Shown: positions 7,027-37,729 of the stretch, in pieces
Layout of the letters: every line of letters starts with the position of its first letter
Numbering within the stretch: position 1 is the first letter of the stretch
IMG/VR virus record: IMGVR_UViG_3300009545_000023
Coordinates: 2,701-66,700 of that record
DNA length: 64,000 bases
Direction: 5' to 3' (one strand)
From: a virus
Notes under the pieces: generated by a model
What the model was told of the DNA's origin: nothing
What the model saw: the letters and a program-made list of their open reading frames with translations, nothing else
The model's database searches: none
Made by a program: the position numbers and the translations under genes

Positions 7027-7625
7027 TCGGTCGGTGCCTCCTGCTTCTTTTGGAATCGGGCACATGCGGACCATTGCGCCTGCACAGCGACTGCCTCACC
7101 CAACGGGCATACGATTACACCACCTACTACACGCCTATTACCGGGAGATATCCAATTACCATTGCCTTTACTATTGCTCGTGTCTGCTTCCCAGCCGTTC
7201 TCAAGCAGGTACTCACAATCACGTTCGAGAGGATGCCCGTACTGCGGCCATTTGATGAATTGAACACGCGGAGCGTTATCATATGTCGGCTCGAATCGAA
7301 CGCCAGAAATAGACGGAACGGCGCGACCCATACCCAAAACTCCGTCGCCAGTAGTCAGTCCGGTATTCTCGTCATACTGTGTACTCAATTCATTGCACTC
7401 CTCGGCTACGATATCACTGGTTTTTACAAACACTAATCCCGATCTACTTATCGTAGAGACCGTATAGAAATTAACCCGTTCCTGCGTCCCGGTTTTCGGT
7501 CTCATATGCAGTGATTCTATTCGGACGCGAGATCCAGCCTTACCGATATACTCATTATCAATAAGCGTCCTTCCAATTTGCCCATTATTAAGAAAAGATG
7601 TTTGGGCAGGAGAGACAGTACTCAT
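7023..7625 (-). CDS. Hypothetical protein
   Basis: 200 aa ORF with ATGA overlaps. Confidence 0.5.
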   Translation of the reverse strand: MSTVSPAQTSFLNNGQIGRTLIDNEYIGKAGSRVRIESLHMRPKTGTQERVNFYTVSTISRSGLVFVKTSDIVAEECNELSTQYDENTGLTTGDGVLGMGRAVPSISGVRFEPTYDNAPRVQFIKWPQYGHPLERDCEYLLENGWEADTSNSKGNGNWISPGNRRVVGGVIVCPLGEAVAVQAQWSACARFQKKQEAPTE

Positions 7626-8419
7626 TGTGCCTGTCCTCCGTAAACCGGTGCAATCTCACCCTGTCGCCATGCAACAAAGATCGTCGGCGCACCGTTGCCC
7701 AGCCCCAACCATGCCGCTTCGTACCCGGCGCTGACGAGTTCACGCCGCAACGCTTCCTGAGACAACATTGTCCACGAGTGCCATTCGCCGATGATGTAGC
7801 GGATGCGATGTGCGACCGACTTGAACGACTCGCCGCGCAGTATCTCGCTCTCTGCGCCCTCTACGTCGAGTTTGAGCAGGTCGATGGTGTCAATCTCTTT
7901 CATTCGCATAAGCGTTGATAGAGTGACAGTGGTAACTTCTTCGATTGGGCCGCCGATACCATTATCCAATAAAGAATGCGCAGTAGGATTTGAGGAATGG
8001 TGCAGATTGTACGTACCGTCCTTATCCCACAGAGCGACCTTCATAGGAAATACATCCTGCCACTGCTCATTCAGTTCAAGAGTATTACGTATGCAATCGT
8101 AGTGATCTTTACAGGGTTCGAGCGCGTAAACTTTATCAGCGTAGTCAGCGAAGTAAACCGCCGTGATACCGATGTTAGATCCAGCGTCTACAATGACCAG
8201 AGGCTTAGGCACTGAATGATTGGCGCGCAACCCTACGGCCCTGATTACCGGGTCGTATATCCGCGCATGGTAGACCTCGCTGATAATGTCGCCGATGTGA
8301 GCGTTTGCGAGATCGCCGTTGTAGAAGATCGCTTTCAGTCTGTTACCTCGCCAGTACAATCCGTGATCGGTTCGCGATGACTTCCTGCGCCTGTTGATGT
8401 TCCGCTTTTGCCGACTCAA
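7622..8419 (-). CDS. FkbM-family SAM methyltransferase
   Basis: VDAGSNIG, YALEP, IDLLKLDVEGAE, GEWH motifs; true start probably downstream. Confidence 0.9.
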   Translation of the reverse strand: MSRQKRNINRRRKSSRTDHGLYWRGNRLKAIFYNGDLANAHIGDIISEVYHARIYDPVIRAVGLRANHSVPKPLVIVDAGSNIGITAVYFADYADKVYALEPCKDHYDCIRNTLELNEQWQDVFPMKVALWDKDGTYNLHHSSNPTAHSLLDNGIGGPIEEVTTVTLSTLMRMKEIDTIDLLKLDVEGAESEILRGESFKSVAHRIRYIIGEWHSWTMLSQEALRRELVSAGYEAAWLGLGNGAPTIFVAWRQGEIAPVYGGQAQ

Positions 8420-9701: not shown

Positions 9702-11348
9702 TTAAAACTTAGCCTTTCTCTCGTCGCCCTCAAGTTCGAGTTCCCATTTGTTTTTCGTGCGCGGCTTTACAGCGGCTTCCGGCCTGGTGCGGAGCGCATA
9801 GCGGATCATGTCACCAACAAGGTGATCCCACGGGCCTTCCGCCATGTCTTCAGACTTCACTTTGCTGAATTGCGCCATTGGGAACAGTCGGATAACGTCG
9901 GCGTTGTAGCCCTTCCAGATGCGCAGGACCGGCTTCTTGTCGGAACACACCTGCTTTAGTGCGGCACGAACCACGGAGAAACCCGCCTGACGGTTGTTGT
10001 CAGCGGGTGCGCAGGATAACCCGGCGCGATGGTACGCCTCTATATTCGCTTCGCCAACAAAACCGGGCTTATTACGGGCGTGCGGCTTGTTCCACATCGT
10101 CGGGTCGCAAGCGATAGGACAATCGTCTTTATCGACTCCCCAGCGTTCGAGGAGATCACATATCTTCTCTGCCTGTTCGTCGTCCTCCAGCCGTGTCACC
10201 TGAAACGACTCGATCAGATGCACCGCACCAATCTCGTCACAGGCGAAGAGTCCGAACGCTTGCGGATCGCGCCAACCCCAGTCATTACCGGCGAAGTAGT
10301 TCCACCATTTCGGCGGTCGCTTGCCCTCAACGGGTTGATAGAGCGGTGCGATACAATGGCGATCTGCACTAAACTCGCTATAGAAGGTTGTGCCCAGTCC
10401 GGTACGATGCTGACATTCACGCTCGAACGAGACCGCGCCAAACTTGTTTAGCTCAAATTCACAGACTTCGAGATCCTTACCGGCCCAAGTCGGCGTACCA
10501 CCGGTGATCTCGAAGACTTCCTGCCCGCGCTCATTGATGTACTTTTCGTATTTCAGGTCAACAACGGCGGGTATCTTCTCCGTTGGAAAGCGGTCAAGCA
10601 ATATGCCGTTCTCACCCGATAGCGTCTGCGCCATCACGGAGTACGAATGAATCTCGTTTTGGACGAAGATCACCGCGCAATCATCAGAGCCAGCCGGGAG
10701 AACTGTCTGGGATACGGTCTCGGTCTTCTTGGCGGCGGCTTCGATGCTATCGTGACGGTCGTCTATGTCGTCAAGGACGATAATATCGGGCCGCAGCTCG
10801 TCCAGCTTGACACCGCGAGTACCGCCGTTCAGACCGAAGGCAAGAACGTTAAAACCGTTCGCGGCGCGTAGCTGGGTACCGTTCCATCCTCGTGCAAAGC
10901 CATACTTGCCCATGGCGCGTTCAACACCCATGCGCTCCATCTGTACCCCGATGGCCTGTACGTGCCTGTCTGCTGCCTCCTGAGTACCCGATACATAGAG
11001 TACGAATCGCCGGTTGGCAGTCGCGCACAGTCGGCAGATATTGGTTTCTACCGTTGTCGATTTACCGTGACCTCGGCTCCAGCATTCGATCAGTGCCGGA
11101 TGATGAACACCGGGTTGCAGTGCTTCGAACCACTCCCAAACCCGCGTATGATGCGGTGCGAGCGGTTTATCAACGACACCACCGCCGTACCGCTCTCGCC
11201 ATTCCTGCCAGGTTAGATCCCCGCTCGGCAATCGTGTCGCCGGTTTCGCACCGATGGCGTTTTCCGGGTCAAGACTCTTGGCGAGATTCAATAGCCAGGT
11301 CGTTAAGGCGTCTTGCTGCGGCGGCAAGATCGACAGGGTTGCGGACAT
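9702..11348 (-). CDS. terL: Terminase large subunit
   Basis: Walker A SRGHGKST, Walker B IIVLDD, RNase H-like nuclease GNDWG...DH..DMIRY. Confidence 0.95.
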   Translation of the reverse strand: MSATLSILPPQQDALTTWLLNLAKSLDPENAIGAKPATRLPSGDLTWQEWRERYGGGVVDKPLAPHHTRVWEWFEALQPGVHHPALIECWSRGHGKSTTVETNICRLCATANRRFVLYVSGTQEAADRHVQAIGVQMERMGVERAMGKYGFARGWNGTQLRAANGFNVLAFGLNGGTRGVKLDELRPDIIVLDDIDDRHDSIEAAAKKTETVSQTVLPAGSDDCAVIFVQNEIHSYSVMAQTLSGENGILLDRFPTEKIPAVVDLKYEKYINERGQEVFEITGGTPTWAGKDLEVCEFELNKFGAVSFERECQHRTGLGTTFYSEFSADRHCIAPLYQPVEGKRPPKWWNYFAGNDWGWRDPQAFGLFACDEIGAVHLIESFQVTRLEDDEQAEKICDLLERWGVDKDDCPIACDPTMWNKPHARNKPGFVGEANIEAYHRAGLSCAPADNNRQAGFSVVRAALKQVCSDKKPVLRIWKGYNADVIRLFPMAQFSKVKSEDMAEGPWDHLVGDMIRYALRTRPEAAVKPRTKNKWELELEGDERKAKF

Positions 11349-17712: not shown

Positions 17713-18959
17713 TGGAGATACGCCCCCTTCGGATCACGGGTAATTGATGCACCAGACGGCAGACGCGGCAGACGAGTAGCGGTAATGCGTGGCGAGGTAT
17801 CAGCGCCCACTGTGACAGGGATCTGGTAGATACTCGCCTCGGTCGGCGGCGCGTCGTCCTCGTCGGACTGCTCTTGCCCGGTGAGATACGACGGCAGACG
17901 GTCGAGACCGGGGCGGAACTTGACTAGCTCATCCTCAAAACCACCGGGGCCGGTGATGTACCAAACCTCCTTGCCCTCCTCACGCAGTCGATCCATCGGA
18001 TAGCCGGGATACGGCACCTTCGCGAAGTTCTGGAACATCGGGAGCGGCCTGCCGTTGATGATCGGCGGTTGCTGTGCCTTGATGCGCTCCAGCCGGGACA
18101 TCTGCCCGTCAAACCGCTGATTGTTCAGCCAGTCCTTGACGGCCCTCTCGTCACGGTAGTCCGGCACCGGCACGGAAGAGGGGGGCGCGGCGGAACTTGG
18201 GGGGGTGTTGGTCTGGTTGCGCTTGAGGCACGATCTCAGTTCAAGTTTCCTCTGAAGGTCATTGAACCAGGTAAATTCCCAGTTAAGTTTCGTAGCGTTG
18301 CTTGCCTGAGAGAGCCAGTGGTGTACAAAGGCTTCGATAGCCACGGGCATATCGATTTCCGGGTACCGTGCCTCCATCTTCGCCAATGCTTCCGGTGACG
18401 GTTGCCAATCGGCAGGTATGCGTGTACCTCGCTTACTCTTTGGCTCGGAGGGAATATCCTCCTTTCCGGGGAGAGACGGCGCGTTAGCGTCGATATCTGC
18501 GTCGTCAAGATCGGCTTCGTAACTCCCTGCACCCTCTCTCTCTTCTTTCTCTGTATCTACTTCTGCATCTGTATCTGTATGGTTGGGCGTCCGTTGTAAC
18601 GGGCGTTGAACGGGCGTTGAACGGGCGTTCGTTCTAGCGGCAACGGATGCTTGTCCAGCGGCCTTAGCCTGTTCACTTTTGGCCCGAAACTTGGCTAATT
18701 CGATTTCAATGCGCTTATGGGTCCAGGTTTGACCATCGTCAATGAAAAATTCTGCAAGCGTCGCTCGAATCTCGTTCCACTGTTCGTTGGACATCCGTAC
18801 AACGTTCGCTAAGCGTCCGTTGTCACTGGGGAGTGCTTTGCCGCGTTGCCAGTAGGTCATTATGAGGAGCATATACGCTCCATGCTCCAGCGTGGACAGG
18901 TGTGCGGCATCAGCCATGTAATCAGCGATATAGAGGGGCATATAGGGGACAGCGGGCAT
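17709..18959 (-). CDS. Phage replication initiator (YdaU/DUF1376 N-terminal domain)
   Basis: YMPLYIADYMAD..HLSTLEHGAYMLL...W; GTRIPADW.P C-terminal region; coupled to dnaB. Confidence 0.85.
   Translation of the reverse strand: MPAVPYMPLYIADYMADAAHLSTLEHGAYMLLIMTYWQRGKALPSDNGRLANVVRMSNEQWNEIRATLAEFFIDDGQTWTHKRIEIELAKFRAKSEQAKAAGQASVAARTNARSTPVQRPLQRTPNHTDTDAEVDTEKEEREGAGSYEADLDDADIDANAPSLPGKEDIPSEPKSKRGTRIPADWQPSPEALAKMEARYPEIDMPVAIEAFVHHWLSQASNATKLNWEFTWFNDLQRKLELRSCLKRNQTNTPPSSAAPPSSVPVPDYRDERAVKDWLNNQRFDGQMSRLERIKAQQPPIINGRPLPMFQNFAKVPYPGYPMDRLREEGKEVWYITGPGGFEDELVKFRPGLDRLPSYLTGQEQSDEDDAPPTEASIYQIPVTVGADTSPRITATRLPRLPSGASITRDPKGAYLQ
18598..18630 (+). repeat. Three tandem 11-bp repeats AACGGGCGTT(G/C); candidate iterons of the lytic origin
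   Basis: Copies start at 18598, 18609 and 18620 inside the initiator gene. Confidence 0.6.
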
Positions 18960-20382: not shown

Positions 20383-20726
20383 TTGGCCTCCACGAGTGCG
20401 ATAGACACCTCTGCCCTTGGGTTCTTGCTGTCATCGTGCAGGTAGAAATGCGCTTCTACAATCTGCTTGTCATCCTTGTAAACGACACCTTGCAAGGAGT
20501 CAGAAAGCACCTTCTCACGGTTCATCAGGTCGCCTGACTTTTGAGGTCGGAACACATGGACAGTGAGAGATACCGGGCCTTCGACCATCGGGACGCGCTC
20601 AACCATGCCGATCTGAGCAACGGTCTGTTTGAATGCCTTGGCTTCCTCGCTGACGTAGGTTCCGTGCTTTCCATTTCGCCAATATCTGTTTGCCGAGGGG
20701 GGATATGGTAGTGTCATGTGGATCAT
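20379..20726 (-). CDS. rusA: RusA-like Holliday junction resolvase
   Basis: LPYPPSANRYWR, GDLMNREK..SDSLQ...DDKQI. Confidence 0.9.
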   Translation of the reverse strand: MIHMTLPYPPSANRYWRNGKHGTYVSEEAKAFKQTVAQIGMVERVPMVEGPVSLTVHVFRPQKSGDLMNREKVLSDSLQGVVYKDDKQIVEAHFYLHDDSKNPRAEVSIALVEAK

Positions 20727-21520
20727 GGCAACGTTACTCCTATCTCCTGCGCCATCGCTGGGAAGACACGCAAGAGTTTCTGGCGAGCGCCTTTGACGAT
20801 CTGCCCAAGGCGCTGGGCACTAAAACCGTACAATTTCGCGATATCTCCGTTGCTCATATCGCCGAGGTTCTGGTAATAGTCTTCGAAGACTCGCTGCTGC
20901 AACGGTGACAACTCTGCCCGCTTGTACAGCAGTTCGCGGAACTGCGCATCGTCCGTCTGTCGGTAGCGGGATTCGACCTTACCGGCGCGAAGCCATGCCA
21001 TCGCCATCTGGTCCCGCTCCTCCGGTCGCACCGGTTCATGTAGCGAGACAGACACACCGACACCGGCATGAGAAAGGAACTGTTTCTTTACCTGCTTCTT
21101 CGGGCCGTGGTTCTCGTGCAGGTAGGATGGGATATTAATCAGGCGGGAATGGCGCATCGTGTAGTGACGCGCCGCTGCCAGGATGCGATGCGCACAGTAG
21201 GTCGTCCACGATCCGCCCTTATTCGGGTTGTAGGTGTTCGCACCATTGATGACCATCGCCCATATCTCGCCCGTCAGATCGTCCACAGAGAGCGCGGAGA
21301 GGCTACCCGGCATCGGGCTTGTTCCCCACTTGGCAACCGTCTTTCGGGCAATCGCCATCACCATGTCGTGAACGGCTTCCACAGCGGTATTGCGTGCGGA
21401 TAGGTCGCCTTCGATCTGCCATCGGCGGATCAATTCGGCATGGAACGTTGAGCGAGCGCGGGCCTCATCAGTGACCGGTAGATAGGCTTCACGTTCGAAG
21501 ATAACAGGCGCGGAGGCCAT
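20723..21520 (-). CDS. Sigma-70 family RNA polymerase sigma factor
   Basis: Region 2 (ARN.AVE, DDL, YNPNKGGSWTTY, LINIP) and region 4 (LSPLQQRV...IAKLYGFSAQRLGQI). Confidence 0.85.
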   Translation of the reverse strand: MASAPVIFEREAYLPVTDEARARSTFHAELIRRWQIEGDLSARNTAVEAVHDMVMAIARKTVAKWGTSPMPGSLSALSVDDLTGEIWAMVINGANTYNPNKGGSWTTYCAHRILAAARHYTMRHSRLINIPSYLHENHGPKKQVKKQFLSHAGVGVSVSLHEPVRPEERDQMAMAWLRAGKVESRYRQTDDAQFRELLYKRAELSPLQQRVFEDYYQNLGDMSNGDIAKLYGFSAQRLGQIVKGARQKLLRVFPAMAQEIGVTLP

Positions 21521-22616: not shown

Positions 22617-23048
22617 CTATCGCCCTCCCAGCACGTAATAAAGGGCAGACAGCAGCACCAACCCGCCGACGACATTGCCGACGATTTGAGCGGCGTACAA
22701 CCAATCAATCGAATCGTCTTCCTCGCCTGTCCGTGTCACCTCGCAAGCCGCAGAACCAATCAGCGGCACAGGTGAGCAGTGTGTCGTCTCTGGGTGCTGA
22801 CTGAGCAGGTAATCAACGGGATCGATCTGCTCACGGTAAACATGCCCGGTTCGACTCCACACCTCGCCACGGTCGCGGCAGGGTTTGCATTGCTCGGCGT
22901 CGGCGTCCTGAACAAAAAGCGGCGCAGGGAACAGGGTTTCGAGCGGCACGACACGGAAACAGCGCTCACACGGGCTTTCGTGCTTGGCGGGACGTTGCGG
23001 CGTGTCAGCGGTGAACGTGACGAGGCGTAGATGGTTGGGGCGTTTCAT
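22617..23048 (-). CDS. Zn-finger protein with C-terminal TM helix
   Basis: CERC...CKPC and hydrophobic tail; probable start MKRPNH. Confidence 0.5.
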   Translation of the reverse strand: MKRPNHLRLVTFTADTPQRPAKHESPCERCFRVVPLETLFPAPLFVQDADAEQCKPCRDRGEVWSRTGHVYREQIDPVDYLLSQHPETTHCSPVPLIGSAACEVTRTGEEDDSIDWLYAAQIVGNVVGGLVLLSALYYVLGGR

Positions 23049-24394
23049 AGAACCTCCGTGAGTGAGCGCATCAGAGCGGCCATAAAGAGCGGGGGAACCG
23101 CGTTCCCTACGATGGTTTGAGCAACGCCGGGTTTGCAGTTGAACCGGTAGGAGTCGGGAAACGTTTGGAAGCGGGCGATGCAACGGGCGGGATCGCCTTC
23201 CGGCTGTAACTTCACGACGCGATAGTCACGCTGCGCGAAGAGTTCCTGCTGATCGGGTTCCGTTCCGTACAGGACGTGCCGTCCTGTACGGCCTCCCTCG
23301 CCTGCCATTACTGTGACCATCGGTTTATCGTCGGGTAGCGTCGTTGGCGGTCGCTCACCGGTTGATGCACCTTCAATGAAAAGGGCGCGAAGTTTACCTG
23401 CACCGTCAGCGGTCAGCGTCGGGCAAGGGATGGAGGGCGGGACCGCGATATCTCCTGCCTCACCGTTGATGCGGATCAGGGCGCGTAGATTGTTCAGCGA
23501 ACCCGTCATGGTGTACGCCGGGTCTAAGTCCTTCGGCGCAGGGAACCAGGGATTATCGGCGTTCGGGTGAGGCAGGACCGCTCTAAACGGATGCTTGTCA
23601 ATGGACGCCGTTATCGTTGGCGCGGGTGCCTCTCCATCTCGCGTCATGGGCGCAGCGTCACCGAAGGACGAAGGGATTCCCGCAACTTGTTGCGGGAAGA
23701 TGGCTTTCTCTCTCAGTCGCTTTTCCTGCCATTTCGCTAGTTTGGTCTCAGGACATCGCGGGAGCAGATCGGCAATCGCGTCGTACCAACCGCACCAAGG
23801 CAAGAGTGGCGCAGCGGCGAACATATCCATCGTCTTCCCGGCGAGTTTGGACCGCTCACAGTGTGTCGGCAGGAACATCGGAATCGTGTCGCTCACATCT
23901 CTGCGGACAGCACGAACGATAAGGCGCTCACGTGTTTGTGGAATACCGAAATCTGCGAAATTGAACACGTCGTACTGAACTATGTAGCCCTGAACGTAGA
24001 GCATGGCGAGGATGGATTTAAACGACTCCGAATGCTCATAGGCGCGGACATTCTCCAGCGTGAACAGTTTTGGGCGGATCTCAGCAATAGCGCGACAGAT
24101 CGCGTTTGCACAGGTGATTTCAAGTTCCGATTCCTTCCCGTTCGTGTTCGCGACAGAAAAGACCGTGCAGGGCGGGGAACCGTGAAAGTGGTCAGCACCG
24201 GCAAGCGATCGGTAATCGACTGCCCGCACGTCGGCACAGCGCAGGTGCTTGTCTCCGAAGTTATCGGCATAGACCTCGCAGATTTTCGGATCGTGTTCGA
24301 CGGACAGGACGACAGAGCCGCCCGTCGCCATGACACCCATTTCGACGCCACCGCCGCCGCTAAAGGTCACGACTGAGGTATAAGGCTTGCTCAC
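23045..24394 (-). CDS. DNA (cytosine-5) methyltransferase
   Basis: FSGGGG (I), GSPPC (IV), ENV (VI), PQTRER (VIII), GNAV (X); probable GTG start 24394. Confidence 0.95.
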   Translation of the reverse strand: MSKPYTSVVTFSGGGGVEMGVMATGGSVVLSVEHDPKICEVYADNFGDKHLRCADVRAVDYRSLAGADHFHGSPPCTVFSVANTNGKESELEITCANAICRAIAEIRPKLFTLENVRAYEHSESFKSILAMLYVQGYIVQYDVFNFADFGIPQTRERLIVRAVRRDVSDTIPMFLPTHCERSKLAGKTMDMFAAAPLLPWCGWYDAIADLLPRCPETKLAKWQEKRLREKAIFPQQVAGIPSSFGDAAPMTRDGEAPAPTITASIDKHPFRAVLPHPNADNPWFPAPKDLDPAYTMTGSLNNLRALIRINGEAGDIAVPPSIPCPTLTADGAGKLRALFIEGASTGERPPTTLPDDKPMVTVMAGEGGRTGRHVLYGTEPDQQELFAQRDYRVVKLQPEGDPARCIARFQTFPDSYRFNCKPGVAQTIVGNAVPPLFMAALMRSLTEVL

Positions 24395-24975
24395 GCTGCA
24401 CCTCCCTCTTCGCAATCGACTTCCTCACCCGCGACGTAGGATTCTTCCAAATCCTCGTTGGCTTTGTCGCCGCCCTTCGTCTCGAAGTCGTCCACCCACA
24501 CGAACGACCACACATCAAATCGAACGCTGGGGTGTTCCTCTGAAAGACGCTTCGCCTCCGCTGACCAATCGACCGAGCAAGAGCGGATAGACAGGCCGAA
24601 CACATCAAGTTCAGCGGCTTCGAGATCGGCAACAGTCGTGACACCGGGAATCATCACAGCGCAGATTTCGCGGTACCGGATTGGTCCCTCCCAAACGTCA
24701 GCAAACACCGTGTCTTTCTCCTCATCGCGGTACATCGTGTGATCGACCGGCAGGGCGAATTGATCGGCGGCAGGACTCGGCATCAGGTCAGCACCAGCCA
24801 TGAACGGCAACACAGTGTTTGCAAGGTGTCCCGGCATTTCCGCATAATCGCCCGCGTCGAAAAAGGCGTCGTTTGGCATCGGGATTGGTCCGGCAGGAAG
24901 CACGGGCACATCGACCGGTTCAAACTCCGCTTTGCCGGTCTCGGCGTCGAAATGGATCAGGGAGACGGTTTTCAT
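24391..24975 (-). CDS. Hypothetical protein
   Basis: 194 aa acidic ORF, coupled. Confidence 0.6.
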   Translation of the reverse strand: MKTVSLIHFDAETGKAEFEPVDVPVLPAGPIPMPNDAFFDAGDYAEMPGHLANTVLPFMAGADLMPSPAADQFALPVDHTMYRDEEKDTVFADVWEGPIRYREICAVMIPGVTTVADLEAAELDVFGLSIRSCSVDWSAEAKRLSEEHPSVRFDVWSFVWVDDFETKGGDKANEDLEESYVAGEEVDCEEGGAA

Positions 24976-25860: not shown

Positions 25861-26312
25861 CAGTCGAGTCCTCCCAGTCCTGAGATTTTCTGATAGTGTT
25901 CGTACTCAAGGTCGGTACATTCGCCCGATGCCATACGCAGGGAGATGTATCGTGCGTACTCACTCAGTACCTTCTCAGCCTCTTTGGTGCGCCCTACCCA
26001 ATCAAGGGCGGTTGCGATGTCACCGGAATTGCTGTCACCGTTCGGCTCCTCAACGTAGCGGTCGATAAGAGCGATGGCGAAGTCGCGCCCTATCACCGTG
26101 GAGGGTGGCATCATATCAACCGCCCGTTGTCGCAGTGAGTCGCGGTACTGCTCGGTCATCTTGTCGCCGGGATTCAGTCTCACAAACTCATTCGTGAGTT
26201 CACGCTCTGTCGGCAGGCCATCTTCGTGCAGTAGCTCTGAGACGCCTTCCGTATCCGCACCGCGCTCCATCCATGTGTCACGCGCCCACGCTTTTGCAGA
26301 TGCTTCGCTCAT
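25860..26312 (-). CDS. Hypothetical protein
   Basis: Probable start MSEASAK (ATGA overlap). Confidence 0.55.
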   Translation of the reverse strand: MSEASAKAWARDTWMERGADTEGVSELLHEDGLPTERELTNEFVRLNPGDKMTEQYRDSLRQRAVDMMPPSTVIGRDFAIALIDRYVEEPNGDSNSGDIATALDWVGRTKEAEKVLSEYARYISLRMASGECTDLEYEHYQKISGLGGLD

Positions 26313-26713
26313 CCTGCTAACCTCCCGTAAGTGTGTTCTGTCGTCGGCGTCCACGGTGTGAAGGCGAGAGGCGGCGCGGCAGGTCCGTCAAAGTCGGCGG
26401 CGCTCATCACGGAGCGGTCAGCGAGGCGCACAGGAGCCACGGAGCGCGGCATCGTATCCGCTAAAGACACAGCATCGCGCGATGCTCGAATCATCGGCAG
26501 GAAATTCTCACGGAAGGCGTACAGGTGCCAACAGTCACGCGGCGATTGGCAGTTGCAGACATACTCGCCCTTTCGAGGAGATAGGCACAGCGTGTATTTC
26601 TTGCCGCTATGCGCAGATACGACTTCGAAGGTAGGCCATCCCTGAATCGATAGACCGGTGTCAGTCCAGAGCGATCTGTCAGCGTAAAGAGACGCTTTGA
26701 CTTCGATTGTCAT
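26309..26713 (-). CDS. SWIM-type zinc finger protein
   Basis: FEVVS...Y...YVCNC..PRDCWH; start MTIEV with GAGG RBS. Confidence 0.7.
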   Translation of the reverse strand: MTIEVKASLYADRSLWTDTGLSIQGWPTFEVVSAHSGKKYTLCLSPRKGEYVCNCQSPRDCWHLYAFRENFLPMIRASRDAVSLADTMPRSVAPVRLADRSVMSAADFDGPAAPPLAFTPWTPTTEHTYGRLAG

Positions 26714-26863
26714 AGCTACCTCTTTACAGGAATCCGCCGCGCTCTTGGTGGCTCCGGCGCATCGGTGCTGCCTGTATACGCTATTTAGATTGCGATTGTT
26801 GCCTTTCATTTTCTGTGATAGAATCCCTTCAGCTTTTGATTTTTTCTTTCGCCTTTTGGCGGT

Positions 26864-26888
26864 GCCCGCTCTCATGGAGCGGGCTTTT
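26864..26888. terminator. GC-rich hairpin closing the repeat array
   Basis: GCCCGCTC-TCATG-GAGCGGGC; T run on the plus side, 13 nt past the last array delimiter on the minus strand. Confidence 0.6.
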
Positions 26889-26897
26889 CTATTTCTT

Positions 26898-27637
26898 GCC
26901 TGCCAATCCACCCGTGCCATCCTCTACACACCTCGGCTTGCCATGCCTGCCTAACCAAACCGGGACACGCCATACCATGCCGCGGCATACCCAACGCGGA
27001 CTGACCAAGACATGCCTGCCTTACCTGACCAAAACACGCCAAAACTGGCCCCACCATAACTCGCCTGACCGCGCCAACCGTGCCAAGCCTGCCTCAACAG
27101 GCCCGACCTCAACGCGCCACACCTGAAACAGCCAAAACATGCCTCGCCTGCCTTGCCGCACCTGGACTCGACTAGACTAACCAAGCCAGAACCGACCTAA
27201 CCGGAACTTGCCCCGCCTGCCACACCTCGCCAATCCGTGACCGGACGTACCACGCCTTGCCTACCTCACCAGTCCCTGACAGAACCAGGCTGACCCGACC
27301 TAAACACGACCTGCCTGCCTCGCCAAAACTACCTTGCCCCGAACGGCCCCGCCGCAACCCGCCTTACCTGCCATGCCCGGCCCGGCCAAGGCCCAACATG
27401 CCCCGAATTGCCTGACCGTGACTGACCCAACCTCGCCTGCCATACCCCACCAAACAACGCCATAACGAGACTAACCACGCCTGCCCCACCATGCCACGAC
27501 TTACCGTGCCAAGACGCGCCGAGAAAAGCCGTGCCTGCCAAGACTCACCGCACCTCACCAAGCCGCACACCGCCATGACACACCGGGCCTGCCGAACCAA
27601 GCCATGACAAACCACGACGTACCCCACCTCGCCTGCC
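26898..27637 (-). ncRNA. Array of 13 putative guide-RNA units (GGCAGGC-delimited, GGY/GTY-NN pentamer repeats; VIPR-like)
   Basis: 14 delimiters (12 exact GGCAGGC, plus GGTAGGC and GGCAGGT); spacings 44,54,54,44,69,53,54,44,69,59,73,69,47; strict 5-nt periodicity; starts 4 nt after the accessory gene stop. Confidence 0.85.
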
Positions 27638-27641
27638 TAGA

Positions 27642-28130
27642 TCAGATATGAACCTTCTTTTCGATGACGCGCTGTTGCAACTCGTCAACGCCTTGAAGCA
27701 GATCGGAGAACTCTTTGAGGCTTTCCAGTTTGCGGCGAGTGGTGGCGAGGTCTTTTGCCACCTCATCCAAAACCTGAAGGCGTAGATCGGGATCGATCAT
27801 CACTGCCTGCACCGACTCGTAGGAGGAGTCTTCTTCGATAACCACATGGCAGAAAGCCCGTACTGGTTGCGCGAGGTCTTCACCGTTCGGCGTTGTAGCA
27901 ACGACCACAGAGCGGATAATTTGACCTGCCTGCTCCAACCGCCAGCGCGTCGCGGCCTTCTGATCGTCCCACTCGAAATACCGATGCAGCAGGTTGTCTT
28001 CCGGTGTCGCCGCCTCAACGACCAGGGGAGCAGTCAAACTCCCCTTCTCGTCGCGGATCGCTTGCAGTGCCTCGCCGACCGCCTGCGGATCACCGGGCAT
28101 TCTCGCTGTTTTTGCGAACTTATAGACCAT
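27642..28130 (-). CDS. Accessory protein of the RAMP/array locus (162 aa)
   Basis: True start MVYKF at 28130 (TGATG overlap with RAMP stop); GEAL..I...G.LT...VV.AA.....LH.YFEWDD..AA..WRL.QA..IIR core plus C-terminal helix. Confidence 0.75.
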   Translation of the reverse strand: MVYKFAKTARMPGDPQAVGEALQAIRDEKGSLTAPLVVEAATPEDNLLHRYFEWDDQKAATRWRLEQAGQIIRSVVVATTPNGEDLAQPVRAFCHVVIEEDSSYESVQAVMIDPDLRLQVLDEVAKDLATTRRKLESLKEFSDLLQGVDELQQRVIEKKVHI

Positions 28131-28741
28131 CAGGAACCTGCCGCTCCGTCCGTCTCGGTGGCGACGTGGAACATTCCGTAACTGCCGTCTTTCTGCGGTC
28201 GCCACTCGCCGACTCCAACCGCAAACCCGGCTACATTGAAGAGGTTGACCAGTTGCTCAACCGAGATCACGGAGGCGTTATAGCGAATCTCTACCGTCGC
28301 CTCCCACTTCTTGAACTCGCCACGATAGCGAATATCAGCGGTCCCCATCCCGACGCGCACCATATCCTCACGCATCGATGGCTCACCTTCGATCTTCACT
28401 AACTCGCCGTTGATGTGGAAGGAACCACGGGCCGCGACCTTGGTCACATTGGCGATATAGGAACAGGCATCGACCGCCGCCGCTTTGAATCCCACGACAG
28501 GGAAACCGTATCCGCCGTCTGGATGCTCGTACAGGGAGTCGAGATAGTCTTGCTCGGGGTTCTTAGCAGACTTGGCGGAAACCGCCTTCTTCATCTGCTT
28601 GTCCAGCATCTCTTTCTTGGCCTTCTCCGACCACTTGTGACAGATCAGGGGAGAGTCGCCAATGATGCGGACTTTGATCGTCCGCAGGTCAAGTCGAGGA
28701 AGTTCGATTACTTCCGGGGTTGGAGCAGTTTTCTTTAGCAT
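28130..28741 (-). CDS. Stand-alone Cas7-like RAMP protein (Vipr-like)
   Basis: RAMP hallmarks: beta1 IKVRIIGDSPL, GFPVVGFKAA (compare Cas7 IPGSSLKG), C-terminal Gly-rich loop AGFAVGVGEWRPQKDGSYGMF; no other cas genes in window. Confidence 0.8.
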   Translation of the reverse strand: MLKKTAPTPEVIELPRLDLRTIKVRIIGDSPLICHKWSEKAKKEMLDKQMKKAVSAKSAKNPEQDYLDSLYEHPDGGYGFPVVGFKAAAVDACSYIANVTKVAARGSFHINGELVKIEGEPSMREDMVRVGMGTADIRYRGEFKKWEATVEIRYNASVISVEQLVNLFNVAGFAVGVGEWRPQKDGSYGMFHVATETDGAAGS

Positions 28742-28774
28742 TTGATTTTTTCTTTCTCGCCGGGTGTTCCGGTC

Positions 28775-28936
28775 TTAGTCCGCCACGATGTCATACACGC
28801 CGTCGATGATCGCGGTGTCCTTCTCCGCTTCCATCAGCAGTTTTTCCGCCGCGATGCAACCAAGGCCTGGTTCGATCACGATCACAACCGGCTTGCCGTT
28901 CTCCGTCGTCTTCAGCACCAATGAATAAGTTCGCAT
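28775..28936 (-). CDS. Small hypothetical protein (53 aa), first gene of the operon
   Basis: GGAG RBS before MRTYSL. Confidence 0.55.
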   Translation of the reverse strand: MRTYSLVLKTTENGKPVVIVIEPGLGCIAAEKLLMEAEKDTAIIDGVYDIVAD

Positions 28937-28977
28937 CGTTCGTCTCCGTGTCCGCTTGTGCGGGATGTGATACAACC

Positions 28978-29006
28978 ATTATACAATCTTCACTTGTATT
29001 TGTCAC
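28978..29006 (-). promoter_or_regulatory. Sigma70-type promoter of the leftward early operon, with embedded operator-like site
   Basis: GTGACA-17-TATAAT; spacer contains ATACAAGTG, also found at 29318-29326. Confidence 0.7.
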
Positions 29007-29018
29007 TAGTTTTACTTG

Positions 29019-29288
29019 TTATTTTTGGCAAGGAAAATACTTGTTTATCTGAGTGACCATATCACTTGCTGACAAGTCGGTAAGCCGCATGATGATGGGC
29101 CAATAGGAAGGATCGGGGCGACATACACCTGTTACCCAATACCCAACCGCTTGGACTGTGATTTTGCATTCTGCGGCAAGATCGTCTCGGGTAATTCCCT
29201 TATCCTGCATGCCTTTTGCAAGCTCACGCCACACAATATTGGGGCGTCGTCCACTGGTATTACGCTGCTTTGTCGTCCCTGTAGCCAT
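29019..29288 (-). CDS. Cro-like HTH protein
   Basis: GITRDDLAAECKITVQAVGYW..G..RP; divergent from cI-like gene; TTGTAT-17-TAAAGT promoter would make it leaderless. Confidence 0.8.
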   Translation of the reverse strand: MATGTTKQRNTSGRRPNIVWRELAKGMQDKGITRDDLAAECKITVQAVGYWVTGVCRPDPSYWPIIMRLTDLSASDMVTQINKYFPCQK

Positions 29289-29294
29289 GCACAC

Positions 29295-29360
29295 ACTTTA
29301 CACCAAATACAAGCCAGATACAAGTGCAACTTTTTGAGCATCTGAGGACACTTACAAGTG
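29295..29360. promoter_or_regulatory. Immunity operator/promoter region
   Basis: TACAAG at 29308, 29319 and 29353; palindromic CACTT-AC-AAGTG at 29349-29360. Confidence 0.55.
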
Positions 29361-29885
29361 ATGCTTTATAATGTAAACCACGGCGATAAAGCGCAAATCC
29401 GCTCGCCTTTTACTATTCCTGATGCTCGGGGTGTTCTAAGCCCGCTCAGTTTAATGCCTATGACATCGACAAAGGAAATACAGGAGACATTCGGGCTTTA
29501 CTTCAAGCGTCTACGCAAGAAAACACGCCCCAATGTCAGTCAAAAGGAAGCTGCTGATGCGGCAGGTGTTACCCAGCAATATGTGTCCCTGATTGAGAGA
29601 ACAGCGGGCACCATAGAGGAACCAGAGGTTGATTGGGAGGTAGCCATCAATCTTGCACTGGCTGTCGGCGGTACAAGAGAAGGCGCTCTAAAAGCTCATG
29701 GAAGAGATCCAAACTCCCCGAAATTTTCCGACCGAGTAGCGCCAGACCACGCAACCATTCTTGTTTCCGGGGAGATCGCTTATCTAAATTCAGCAAGCGG
29801 TCGTAAGATTTTGCTTACTGACGATCTGATGAAGCGTTTGAACTTGGAATCCGAACTGCAAGAGCAGATCGGAGAGCGAAAGTAA
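29358..29885 (+). CDS. cI-like XRE repressor
   Basis: FGLYFKRLRKK...SQKEAADAAGVTQQYVSLIER; true start probably ~29454; no S24 peptidase domain visible. Confidence 0.8.
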   Translation: MMLYNVNHGDKAQIRSPFTIPDARGVLSPLSLMPMTSTKEIQETFGLYFKRLRKKTRPNVSQKEAADAAGVTQQYVSLIERTAGTIEEPEVDWEVAINLALAVGGTREGALKAHGRDPNSPKFSDRVAPDHATILVSGEIAYLNSASGRKILLTDDLMKRLNLESELQEQIGERK

Positions 29886-37086: not shown

Positions 37087-37481
37087 AGCGTGTCCCTCCA
37101 GATCAGCGGTCGGGCCGCCTTGGTCACCTGAGTAATCAGAGCGCGGAACGGTTCGATGTCCTCCAGGTCGCTTTCAACCTTCGTTTCGTCGCAGGACATC
37201 ACGGCGTAGATGCGCGGGCTATAGCTGATAGCGATTTGCCACCAACCGTCATAGTTCGGGAAGGCGCGACAGTTCATAGCGCCATTAGGTAAAGGCACGC
37301 CGGGAATTACAACTCCGCGAACAACTCCCTCCTCAGCGTGAAGACGCTCTACCTGAGCCATCGCTTCGTCGGTGAGAAAGCGGTTCGGCGACGGTCCATC
37401 CGATTCCCAGAATATGTGCGTCCATTTCCTGAAGGCGTCGAACGTCTTTTCGGCGGTTGCTTTATTCGATGTAGTGGTCAT
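37083..37481 (-). CDS. Hypothetical protein
   Basis: 132 aa coupled ORF. Confidence 0.55.
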   Translation of the reverse strand: MTTTSNKATAEKTFDAFRKWTHIFWESDGPSPNRFLTDEAMAQVERLHAEEGVVRGVVIPGVPLPNGAMNCRAFPNYDGWWQIAISYSPRIYAVMSCDETKVESDLEDIEPFRALITQVTKAARPLIWRDTL

Positions 37482-37729
37482 GCGTTCGGTTCCTCATTCG
37501 ATGCGGGCGGGGCGGTCGGAATCAGTTTGCCGCGTTTGTTCAGTTCGGCATAGCATTCGCCCTGCTCTTGTCCTAGCATCGTTAACTCTGCCCGTAGATC
37601 TTCCGTAAGTCTGTCCATCGCCTCAACGGTGGCAATCTTGTCGCGGTTTAGGCTCTCAATACGGGAGCACAGTTCGTCGTCGGTCATCTCACTTATCTTC
37701 ATGCTTCTGCTCCTCCTCGGTTGCGCCAT
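37478..37729 (-). CDS. Small coiled-coil protein
   Basis: KISEMTDDEL... helical. Confidence 0.55.
   Translation of the reverse strand: MAQPRRSRSMKISEMTDDELCSRIESLNRDKIATVEAMDRLTEDLRAELTMLGQEQGECYAELNKRGKLIPTAPPASNEEPNA

Follow-up and report, generated by a model that had tools for sequence, protein, structure and literature searches.

Systems termed VIPR, for Viral Interference Programmable Repeat, have been in print since 2026 (bioRxiv 10.64898/2026.04.26.720920). As far as the available portions of the preprints go, here and throughout, a lone ancestral RAMP protein, Vipr, assembles on its guide RNA with one protomer per pentamer, sequesters the constant GGY triplet and displays the two variable bases (NN). 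Double-stranded DNA is read with one skipped base per NN, which leads to the transcriptional silencing of rival phages and satellites, and the loci carry a vap accessory gene and no cas genes (10.64898/2026.04.26.720920, 10.64898/2026.04.26.720927, 10.64898/2026.10.15.759431). Here we report the computational analysis of a locus in a 64-kb stretch of viral DNA (64,000 nucleotides (nt), hereafter referred to as the window; bases 2701–66700 of the virus record IMGVR_UViG_3300009545_000023), which comprises a vipr gene, a vap-like accessory gene and an array of abutting guides. We are highly confident that the locus is a VIPR system in its tail-less, staggered-array form; it is located in the early region of a 66.7-kb rhizosphere phage, whose genome is rated complete. 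Publications already cover the class, its mechanism and even the staggered form of the array, and within the class the locus is ordinary. What is new here is that the staggered clade is described in quantitative terms, with its conserved GGCA/GGC junction (the slash marks the boundary between guides), its presence in cultured actinobacteriophages and its anti-vipr guides. A preliminary description, made by reading the sequence alone, had picked out this system, a genuine case of RNA guidance from a class whose description was then only months old.

The first of the preprints recognizes seven VIPR types among 664 loci from NCBI, gives vrRNAs as 9–16 YNNGG repeats, and reports satellites, prophages and other VIPR systems as targets, with target matches on both strands read as DNA targeting. 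Some of the types carry nucleases or helicases. For two related VIPR systems, the vrRNAs have been sequenced and shown to co-purify with Vipr; in the portions available, small-RNA sequencing confirmed only the ribozyme-spaced and single-guide forms, and staggered arrays are named (10.64898/2026.04.26.720920). The filament structure and contacts of the Vipr protein of Escherichia phage SUSP1 have been described (10.64898/2026.04.26.720927), SUSP1 is reported to deploy VIPR against a satellite (10.64898/2026.10.15.759431), and a language model recovers period-5 VIPR arrays (10.64898/2026.10.21.760802). Our literature search found no further description of such Vipr and pentamer-repeat systems beyond these preprints.

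The present locus resembles VIPR type II, the type of SUSP1 and of a Pseudomonas fulva prophage, in being phage-borne, in encoding a lone RAMP protein of about 200 residues with the same GGY-contact residues (apart from an aspartate-to-glutamate exchange), in having an adjacent small accessory gene and guides of 8–14 GGY/NN pentamers, and in lacking cas genes. It differs from type II in the construction of the array. As described in the preprint portions available, type II guides each bear a structured 3′ tail of 40–60 nt, whereas those of the present locus are tail-less and abut at GGCA/GGC with a one-base shift. Similarly, the repeat tracts of ESCO50 (a Felixounavirus with a SUSP1-type locus) and LESphi2 lie 36–83 nt apart or flank genes, whereas here they abut, and about 12 guides stand in one array, as compared with four in SUSP1. 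The array corresponds to the 'staggered vrRNA arrays' of the fig. S18 legend, in which neighbours overlap by one nucleotide (10.64898/2026.04.26.720920); here and in 102 related loci, this takes the form of 5n − 1 spacing and the GGCA/GGC junction. Unlike in the ribozyme-spaced VIPR arrays, the guides abut directly. The preliminary description is refined accordingly: the array is of the tail-less 'staggered' form and not of the tailed type II form, and the sequence of the accessory protein shows no similarity to vap1 of the SUSP1 type.

Two systems outside VIPR also invite comparison. The protein shares with the Cas7/Csm3 backbone of type III (and of type VII and III-E) effectors an RRM-based RAMP architecture with a glycine-rich loop and a thumb hairpin. 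In contrast to those effectors, it shows only 9–14% identity, has no other cas genes and no repeat–spacer array beside it, and is associated with a periodicity of 5 nt rather than 6 nt and with a guide that would be read discontinuously. TIGR-Tas systems, whose effector is a protein of another kind (a Nop-domain protein), likewise have a non-CRISPR array of short periodic guide units beside the effector gene and often occur in phages. The TIGR-Tas period is 18 nt, as given in the available text (10.64898/2026.10.21.760802), as against 5 nt here.

A lone RAMP protein related to SUSP1 Vipr

The vipr gene (positions 28130 to 28741, minus strand) encodes a lone, Cas7-like RAMP protein of 203 residues. 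Its stop codon overlaps the start of the accessory gene in the sequence TGATG, in which the A of the vipr TGA is the first base of the vap ATG, and both open reading frames (ORFs) are intact. The preliminary description had reported a 203-residue RAMP gene coupled in this manner to a 162-residue gene; both genes were confirmed, and the peptide motifs that it quoted are present in the translation. The vipr product has no match in Pfam and belongs to phrog_4652 in PHROGs (E = 1.7e-30), to which no function is assigned there. Its sole significant match among all PDB sequences is 36pp_D, the 'SUSP1 Vipr protein' (202 residues), with an E-value of 8.1e-5 for the single sequence and of 6e-8 with a profile of 20 homologues. 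The identity to the SUSP1-type Vipr of Escherichia phage ESCO50 in tblastn is only 25%, and a profile comparison with hhalign aligns the two end to end over 166 columns, at a probability of 97% and an E-value of 9.3e-11.

An AlphaFold model of the 203-residue protein (pLDDT 82) was compared with known structures by two methods. Foldseek, the fold check proposed for positions 28130 to 28741 in the preliminary description, returned 10 matches with E ≤ 0.001, all of the Csm3/Cas7 type. In VIA-align, 66 of 997 chains reached Z ≥ 8, the best covering residues 17–196, and all of the 50 matches listed are type III, VII or III-E RAMP chains. The best structural match is Csm3 (9g9f_E; Z = 9.5, root-mean-square deviation 3.6 Å, 151 residues aligned), in a structure library that extends to April 2026 and does not contain the SUSP1 entry. 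The model contains a glycine-rich loop (G176-V-G-E-W-R-P182) and a β-hairpin (residues 121–143) that bears R140. The protein is thus predicted to adopt the minimal RAMP fold, consisting of an RRM core, a glycine-rich loop and a thumb.

In SUSP1 Vipr, the GGY triplet is held by H17, R138, D177, W178 and R179 (bioRxiv 10.64898/2026.04.26.720927). H35, R140, E179, W180 and R181 of the present protein align with these five residues, and are invariant in the 20 homologues. The family is large: 7,817 of 8,000 scored candidates have E ≤ 0.001, as have 3,927 clusters at 50% identity, and the family is spread over many bacterial phyla, as judged from the titles of the genome records. The VIPR class is very abundant outside cultured hosts.

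Architecture of the staggered array

The array (positions 27637 to 26898, minus strand; 740 nt) consists of G-K-Y-N-N pentamers (K, G or T; Y, C or T) in guide units that abut at GGCA/GGC. Its first GGCAGGC starts at 27637, four bases past the vap stop codon, in agreement with the tract of about 740 nt that the preliminary description had placed there. We parsed the array by dynamic programming and with a phase plot, using our own scripts. In the phase plot, the G-K-Y triplets recur every five bases, and the register falls by exactly one base from run to run. The parse yields 12 units of 8–14 pentamers (7–13 NN), two mini-units of three pentamers and a degenerate last unit, and each of the 12 units opens with GGC-NN and closes with GGCA. 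Because the guides abut at GGCA/GGC, the register drops by one base per boundary.

Along the array strand, the first six units lie at 27633–27590 (8 NN), 27589–27536 (10 NN), 27535–27482 (10 NN), 27481–27438 (8 NN), 27437–27369 (13 NN) and 27368–27330 (7 NN). A mini-unit of three pentamers (27329–27316) is followed by units at 27315–27262 (10 NN), 27261–27218 (8 NN), 27217–27149 (13 NN) and 27148–27090 (11 NN), and the second such mini-unit (27089–27076) by units at 27075–27017 (11 NN) and 27016–26948 (13 NN), with the degenerate last unit occupying 26947–26898. The exact motif GGCAGGC occurs 12 times within 27637–26898, compared with six times elsewhere on the same strand and nine times on the other strand of the window; one-base variants of the junction are found at 27372 (GGCAGGT) and near 27266 (GGTAGGC). 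The spacings between exact motifs are 44, 54, 54, 44, 122, 98, 69, 59, 73, 69 and 47 nt, and seven of these 11 equal 5n − 1. The count of 13 GGCAGGC-delimited units given in the preliminary description came near to these figures, with 12 exact motifs and a parse into 12 units, two mini-units and a degenerate end.

Of the 126 full pentamers, 94% begin with G, and 55% have C and 44% T at position 3 (a pyrimidine in 98%), whilst the base composition at positions 4 and 5 is close to uniform, every one of the 16 dinucleotides being represented. A GGY triplet followed by another at +5 was found 51 times, as against 7.0 ± 2.7 times (maximum 19) in 500 dinucleotide shuffles. The periodicity of the GGY-NN pentamers proposed earlier is thus upheld, whereas the constant triplet is, strictly, G-K-Y (114 of 126 pentamers), with GGY in 82 of them. 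Tandem Repeats Finder misses the array because of the variable NN and the −1 shifts.

No second such array was found on either strand of the window. None of the 91 ORFs in the window matches a Cas model in PADLOC, no tandem repeat with a period above 24 nt, and none of CRISPR-like period, is present there, and Rfam has no family in the locus or the window, CRISPR-DR included, in agreement with the earlier statement that the window lacks cas genes and CRISPR arrays. For hammerhead ribozymes, no Rfam match with E ≤ 1 was obtained in 26500–29400 apart from a chance match to RybB.

The staggered form in related loci

Using a profile, we retrieved 137 related loci (80 viral and 57 genomic; individual loci are denoted by L numbers), in which Vipr identity ranges from 38 to 74%, except in L140, where the match is confined to a 28-residue fragment (75%). 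Of the 137 loci, 114 contain an array with a minimum of 12 pentamers, as do 101 of the 115 with at least 1200 nt downstream; the co-occurrence of arrays with homologues, which had been put forward as a check on the initial reading, was thus observed. The 166 arrays in these loci all share the strand of vipr, the opposite strand having none, and in 164 cases the distance to that gene is no more than 1.5 kb. The gene order is vipr–vap–array in 76 loci, vipr–array–vap in 14 and vipr–array in 11, and other orders also occur.

The one-base register shift and the junction are shared features of these arrays. Of 498 register changes between successive runs, 454 are by −1; the 369 junctions, drawn from 102 loci, include 244 with the sequence GGCAGGC and have A as the fourth base in 79%. 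The GGCAGG motif also brackets the first and last guides: at 78 of 164 array starts and at 76 of 164 ends it lies no more than about 10 nt away, as compared with 352 of 34,492 background windows. In 14 loci with at least 1200 nt downstream (L007, L008, L014, L066, L070, L080, L085, L094, L106, L108, L112, L114, L134 and L137), the detector found no G-K-Y array, non-canonical repeats not having been searched there; these loci may have non-canonical repeats, as in the preprints, a distant array or none. Together with the homology to SUSP1 Vipr, the RAMP fold and the GGY/NN array, the co-occurrence of arrays and homologues bears out the identification as VIPR, which the preliminary description had offered.

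The Vipr protein matched 29 Mycobacterium and 8 Gordonia phage records. Gordonia phage ODay has an unannotated staggered GGY-NN array after its vipr homologue (L001 3629–3771; MW534375.1, about 10992–11134), and Mycobacterium phage Quico has one before it (L002 2635–2851; NC_028751.1, about 37314–37530). Both arrays have GGCAGGC junctions, and the two Vipr homologues, with 42–46% identity, are annotated as 'hypothetical protein'. The staggered clade therefore reaches cultured Gordonia and Mycobacterium smegmatis phages, in which it is testable.

The arrays of some loci are long. Those in L047 (3620–6167), L125 (1866–2897), L076 (2847–3656) and L077 (4192–5000) include stretches of 155–197 pentamers, and in L047 the total is about 340 pentamers, divided among four stretches that lie to either side of vap.

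Guide variability and target matches

Among related loci, the NN positions are hypervariable on a conserved GGY scaffold. Across vipr–vap, L004 and L006 are identical at 1025 of 1200 bases (85%), and their arrays agree at 35 of 38 first G positions, 28 of 38 second G positions and 28 of 38 Y positions, as compared with 13 of 37 fourth and 15 of 33 fifth positions. L009 and L013 are 97% alike, and the single difference within their shared guides is an NN. Their last guides differ at NN, at Y and at one second G (G to T), and L013 has an extra junction.

We scanned 478 guides (425 unique) from 111 loci against 846 kb of sequence, comprising this phage and the 137 array-masked loci, under rules with 0-, 1- and 2-base skips and with shuffled guides as a control. 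At an identity of at least 90%, four guides matched with a one-base skip, none with a 0-nt skip, none with a 2-nt skip and two among the shuffled guides; the aggregate excess is small, so support for the skip rule comes from a few long, phased matches. In the vipr gene of L011 (3130–3164), 23 of 24 bases are matched by an L059 guide with 12 NN, which also matches 21 of 24 in three further vipr genes; a guide of L130 matches 18 of 20 bases in four vipr genes other than its own (from 3412 in L072 and L073, and from about 3442 in L089 and L090). The vipr genes of the loci that carry these two guides match at only 17 of 24 and 14 of 20 bases, respectively. The L059 and L130 matches keep the codon phase, the skipped base being the one at the wobble position, and fall in the conserved motifs MLDKQMKKA and MGTADLRYR, the latter of which contains the thumb arginine. 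In addition, a guide of L071 matches L101 near 4073 under the one-base-skip rule; as a group, these matches to the vipr or vap genes of other loci keep the codon phase, fall in conserved motifs and exceed those to the guides' own genes. Within the clade, the guide matches in vipr genes are to the coding strand, and a match in a vap gene is to the opposite one. In these few matches, the staggered clade repeats the anti-VIPR targeting and the self-avoidance reported in the preprints.

The 12 guides of the present array gave no such match in the sequence scanned. Against the 66.7 kb of the phage, with a one-base skip, their best matches comprise 12–19 of 14–26 bases and lie within the shuffled ranges, except for guide 5, whose self-match of 19 compares with 18 as the highest value among shuffled guides; a value of 19 is likewise attained under the 0- and 2-nt rules. 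Nothing above shuffled guides was found in 783 kb of related VIPR loci, and nothing above shuffles when the guides were compared as wobble-free peptides with 270 Vipr proteins. Conversely, the guides of relatives match this phage at chance level, with 16 of 18 and 14 of 16 bases at best. The blank for the phage's own guides carries little weight, because a very small part of public sequence was scanned.

The accessory protein

The vap-like accessory gene (positions 27642 to 28130, minus strand) encodes a protein of 162 residues, which belongs to phrog_15946 (E = 2e-16). A conserved homologue of 150–210 residues adjoins vipr in 115 of the 137 related loci, and the family has the conserved motif PLH..FEWDD..AA..YR..QAR. 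The model (pLDDT 93) comprises a mixed α/β N-terminal domain (residues 1–110) and a C-terminal helix of about 50 residues. The N-terminal domain has a weak likeness to the winged-helix repressors MecI/BlaI, PerR, PadR and MarR and to Fox proteins, with Z scores of 4–5.5, which lie under the trust bar of the tool (for MecI 1okr_A, Z = 5.2, root-mean-square deviation 3.0, 68 residues aligned). As a lead, the N-terminal domain is possibly a winged helix, which would fit the remark in the preprint portions available that some vap proteins are winged-helix-like DNA binders (bioRxiv 10.64898/2026.04.26.720920).

Other searches with this protein gave no named family. There is no Pfam family above the cut-off and no PDB sequence match with E < 0.05, Foldseek returned no PDB match with E ≤ 0.001 for the model, and in a wide VIA search the matches were confined to the long helix at the C terminus. 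In BFVD, the three matches are all uncharacterised viral proteins, and in the ESM Atlas only unnamed viral clusters were matched. The protein is not alignable with the LESphi2 neighbour protein (hhalign 0.4%).

Putative transcription signals and a proposed mechanism

A sigma-70-like promoter candidate (28978 to 29006, minus strand) lies upstream of vipr, with GTGACA and TATAAT separated by a 17-nt spacer and 11 of 12 consensus positions. Promoter-like sites number five in the 3.2-kb region, as against 1.7 ± 1.7 in shuffles, and the site at 29006–28978 may serve as the promoter of the locus. As only four bases separate vap from the array, co-transcription of vipr, vap and the array is likely. 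Just past the array lies the G+C-rich hairpin noted in the preliminary description (26884 to 26864, minus strand), with a 9-pair stem that includes seven G–C pairs; the fold of its 111-nt region has a z score of −3.25. This hairpin may act as a terminator or as a 3′ stabiliser of the array transcript.

We propose the following mechanism. The vipr and vap genes and the array would be transcribed as one unit from the promoter-like site. Vipr protomers would bind the transcript one per pentamer, holding G-G/T-Y and displaying NN, as the SUSP1 structures and the conserved contact residues suggest. Every 8–14 pentamers, the four-base GGCA would shift the register by −1, so that one filament ends and the next starts, and the transcript would be cut into about 12 guides of 39–69 nt. 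The filament of Vipr and guide would then bind double-stranded DNA in the pattern NN-x-NN-x, with x usually at a codon wobble position, and block transcription, following the published rule and the matches seen among the relatives in the clade. Vap, perhaps as a winged-helix dimer, may assist at the DNA. Competing phages, satellites or prophages in the same host are the likely targets. One subunit per pentamer, a held triplet, a displayed NN and the silencing of rivals had all been envisaged in the preliminary description; they agree with what is published for VIPR, in the text available, and would apply here by analogy.

We advance more tentatively, at somewhat short of an even chance, the proposal that the staggered form is a distinct way of making guides, in which GGCA punctuation in a five-base lattice delimits, and perhaps cuts, the guides without a structured tail, a ribozyme or a dedicated nuclease. 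On this proposal, the four-base GGCA unit breaks the register of the Vipr filament, and each guide is thereby delimited. If so, one short transcript would hold a dozen or more guides.

Weighing the assignment against alternatives

Several observations weigh against the assignment to VIPR. In the array, position 2 of the pentamer is G in 69% and T in 29%, and 12 of the 126 pentamers deviate even from G-K-Y. In the proteins, the D177 of SUSP1 is replaced by a glutamate (E179), Vap has no sequence likeness to the vap1 of ESCO50 (hhalign 0.2%), and its winged-helix scores (Z ≤ 5.5) remain under the trust bar. The hairpin has a T-run only on the plus strand, which leaves no U-tract on the array strand; the excess of guide matches is small in aggregate; and transcription and processing of the array at this locus are predictions from the DNA sequence. 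Given the homology, the predicted fold, the array and its co-occurrence with vipr, we nevertheless regard the assignment as very probable, and three alternatives were considered beside it.

We consider it improbable that the locus belongs to the VIPR family and has a different output, namely RNA targeting, or the recruitment of a nuclease or another effector through Vap. The nearest solved folds, type III Csm3 and Cas7, act on RNA, Vap falls into no known family and has no sequence relationship to vap1, and some VIPR types do carry nucleases or helicases, according to the portions of the preprint available (10.64898/2026.04.26.720920). However, Vap itself matches no family of nucleases or helicases, its closest, though weak, likeness being to winged-helix DNA binders, and the GGY-contact residues are the same as those of the DNA-binding SUSP1 protein, apart from the exchange of aspartate for glutamate. 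Moreover, the guides of the clade match both strands (vipr genes on the coding strand, vap on the opposite one), a pattern that the preprint, in the text available, reads as DNA targeting.

Still less probable is a decaying or idle copy of a VIPR system, in which the genes are intact and either the guides have become out of date or processing of the array has ceased. This would account for the absence of a target for the guides of this array in the phage, the related loci and the 270 Vipr proteins, and for the degeneracy of the last unit (26947–26898) and of the two mini-units. Against it stand the two intact ORFs, the retention of all contact residues and the clean scaffold of 12 units, and the target blank itself weighs little, given the very small part of public sequence covered.

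Equally hard to credit is a repeat acting at the DNA level, as protein-binding sites or iterons for Vipr or Vap or as a G-rich structural tract: the tract is indeed G-rich and strictly periodic, but all 166 related arrays are on the vipr strand, which a DNA site does not need, the variable NN on a kept GGY and the in-phase matches to foreign genes fit a code, and vrRNAs of two related VIPR systems have been sequenced and co-purified, according to the available text (10.64898/2026.04.26.720920). We therefore retain the assignment of the locus to the staggered form of VIPR.

Genomic surroundings of the locus

The source record is a 66.7-kb virus, rated complete, with direct terminal repeats of 123 bp, and comes from rhizosphere metagenomes. 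The stretch occurs in three DNA sequencing runs, two of which may be its source, and no RNA run is listed for it. The phage genes include those for a portal protein, a large terminase, a DnaB-type helicase, a primosomal protein, RusA, a sigma factor, a Bet-like annealing protein and two DNA methyltransferases. The two methyltransferases and the phage's own sigma factor lie at 7622–8419, 23045–24415 and 20723–21520 of the window, and one of the methyltransferases is of the cytosine-5 type (PADLOC, PHROGs). No close relatives of the phage were found in the viral contig collection by DnaB or terminase; among cultured phages, the terminase has no match and DnaB has only 27% matches. The window contains no tRNA.

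The VIPR locus is located directly downstream of the leftward gene of a divergent pair of helix-turn-helix (HTH) genes (29019–29294, minus strand, and 29358–29885, plus strand), with promoter-like sites facing both ways (29345–29372, plus strand, and 29006–28978, minus strand). The pair is probably the early or immunity switch of the phage. A 53-residue ORF (28775 to 28936, minus strand) without a family match lies between the promoter candidate and vipr. Just after the array, a 134-residue ORF (26309–26713, minus strand), also without a family match, has a C-x-C ... C-x-H pattern (YVCNCQSPRDCWH), which we take to resemble a SWIM zinc finger. The 53-residue ORF (by tblastn), both HTH genes and the 134-residue ORF have no match in any of the 137 related loci. 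The absence of these flanking genes from all of the related loci indicates that the mobile unit consists of vipr, vap and the array. Elsewhere in the window, the region of the primosomal or replication-initiator gene contains an 11-nt unit repeated 3.4 times (18592–18629; CGTTGAACGGG), and these repeats might be iteron-like repeats of a replication origin.

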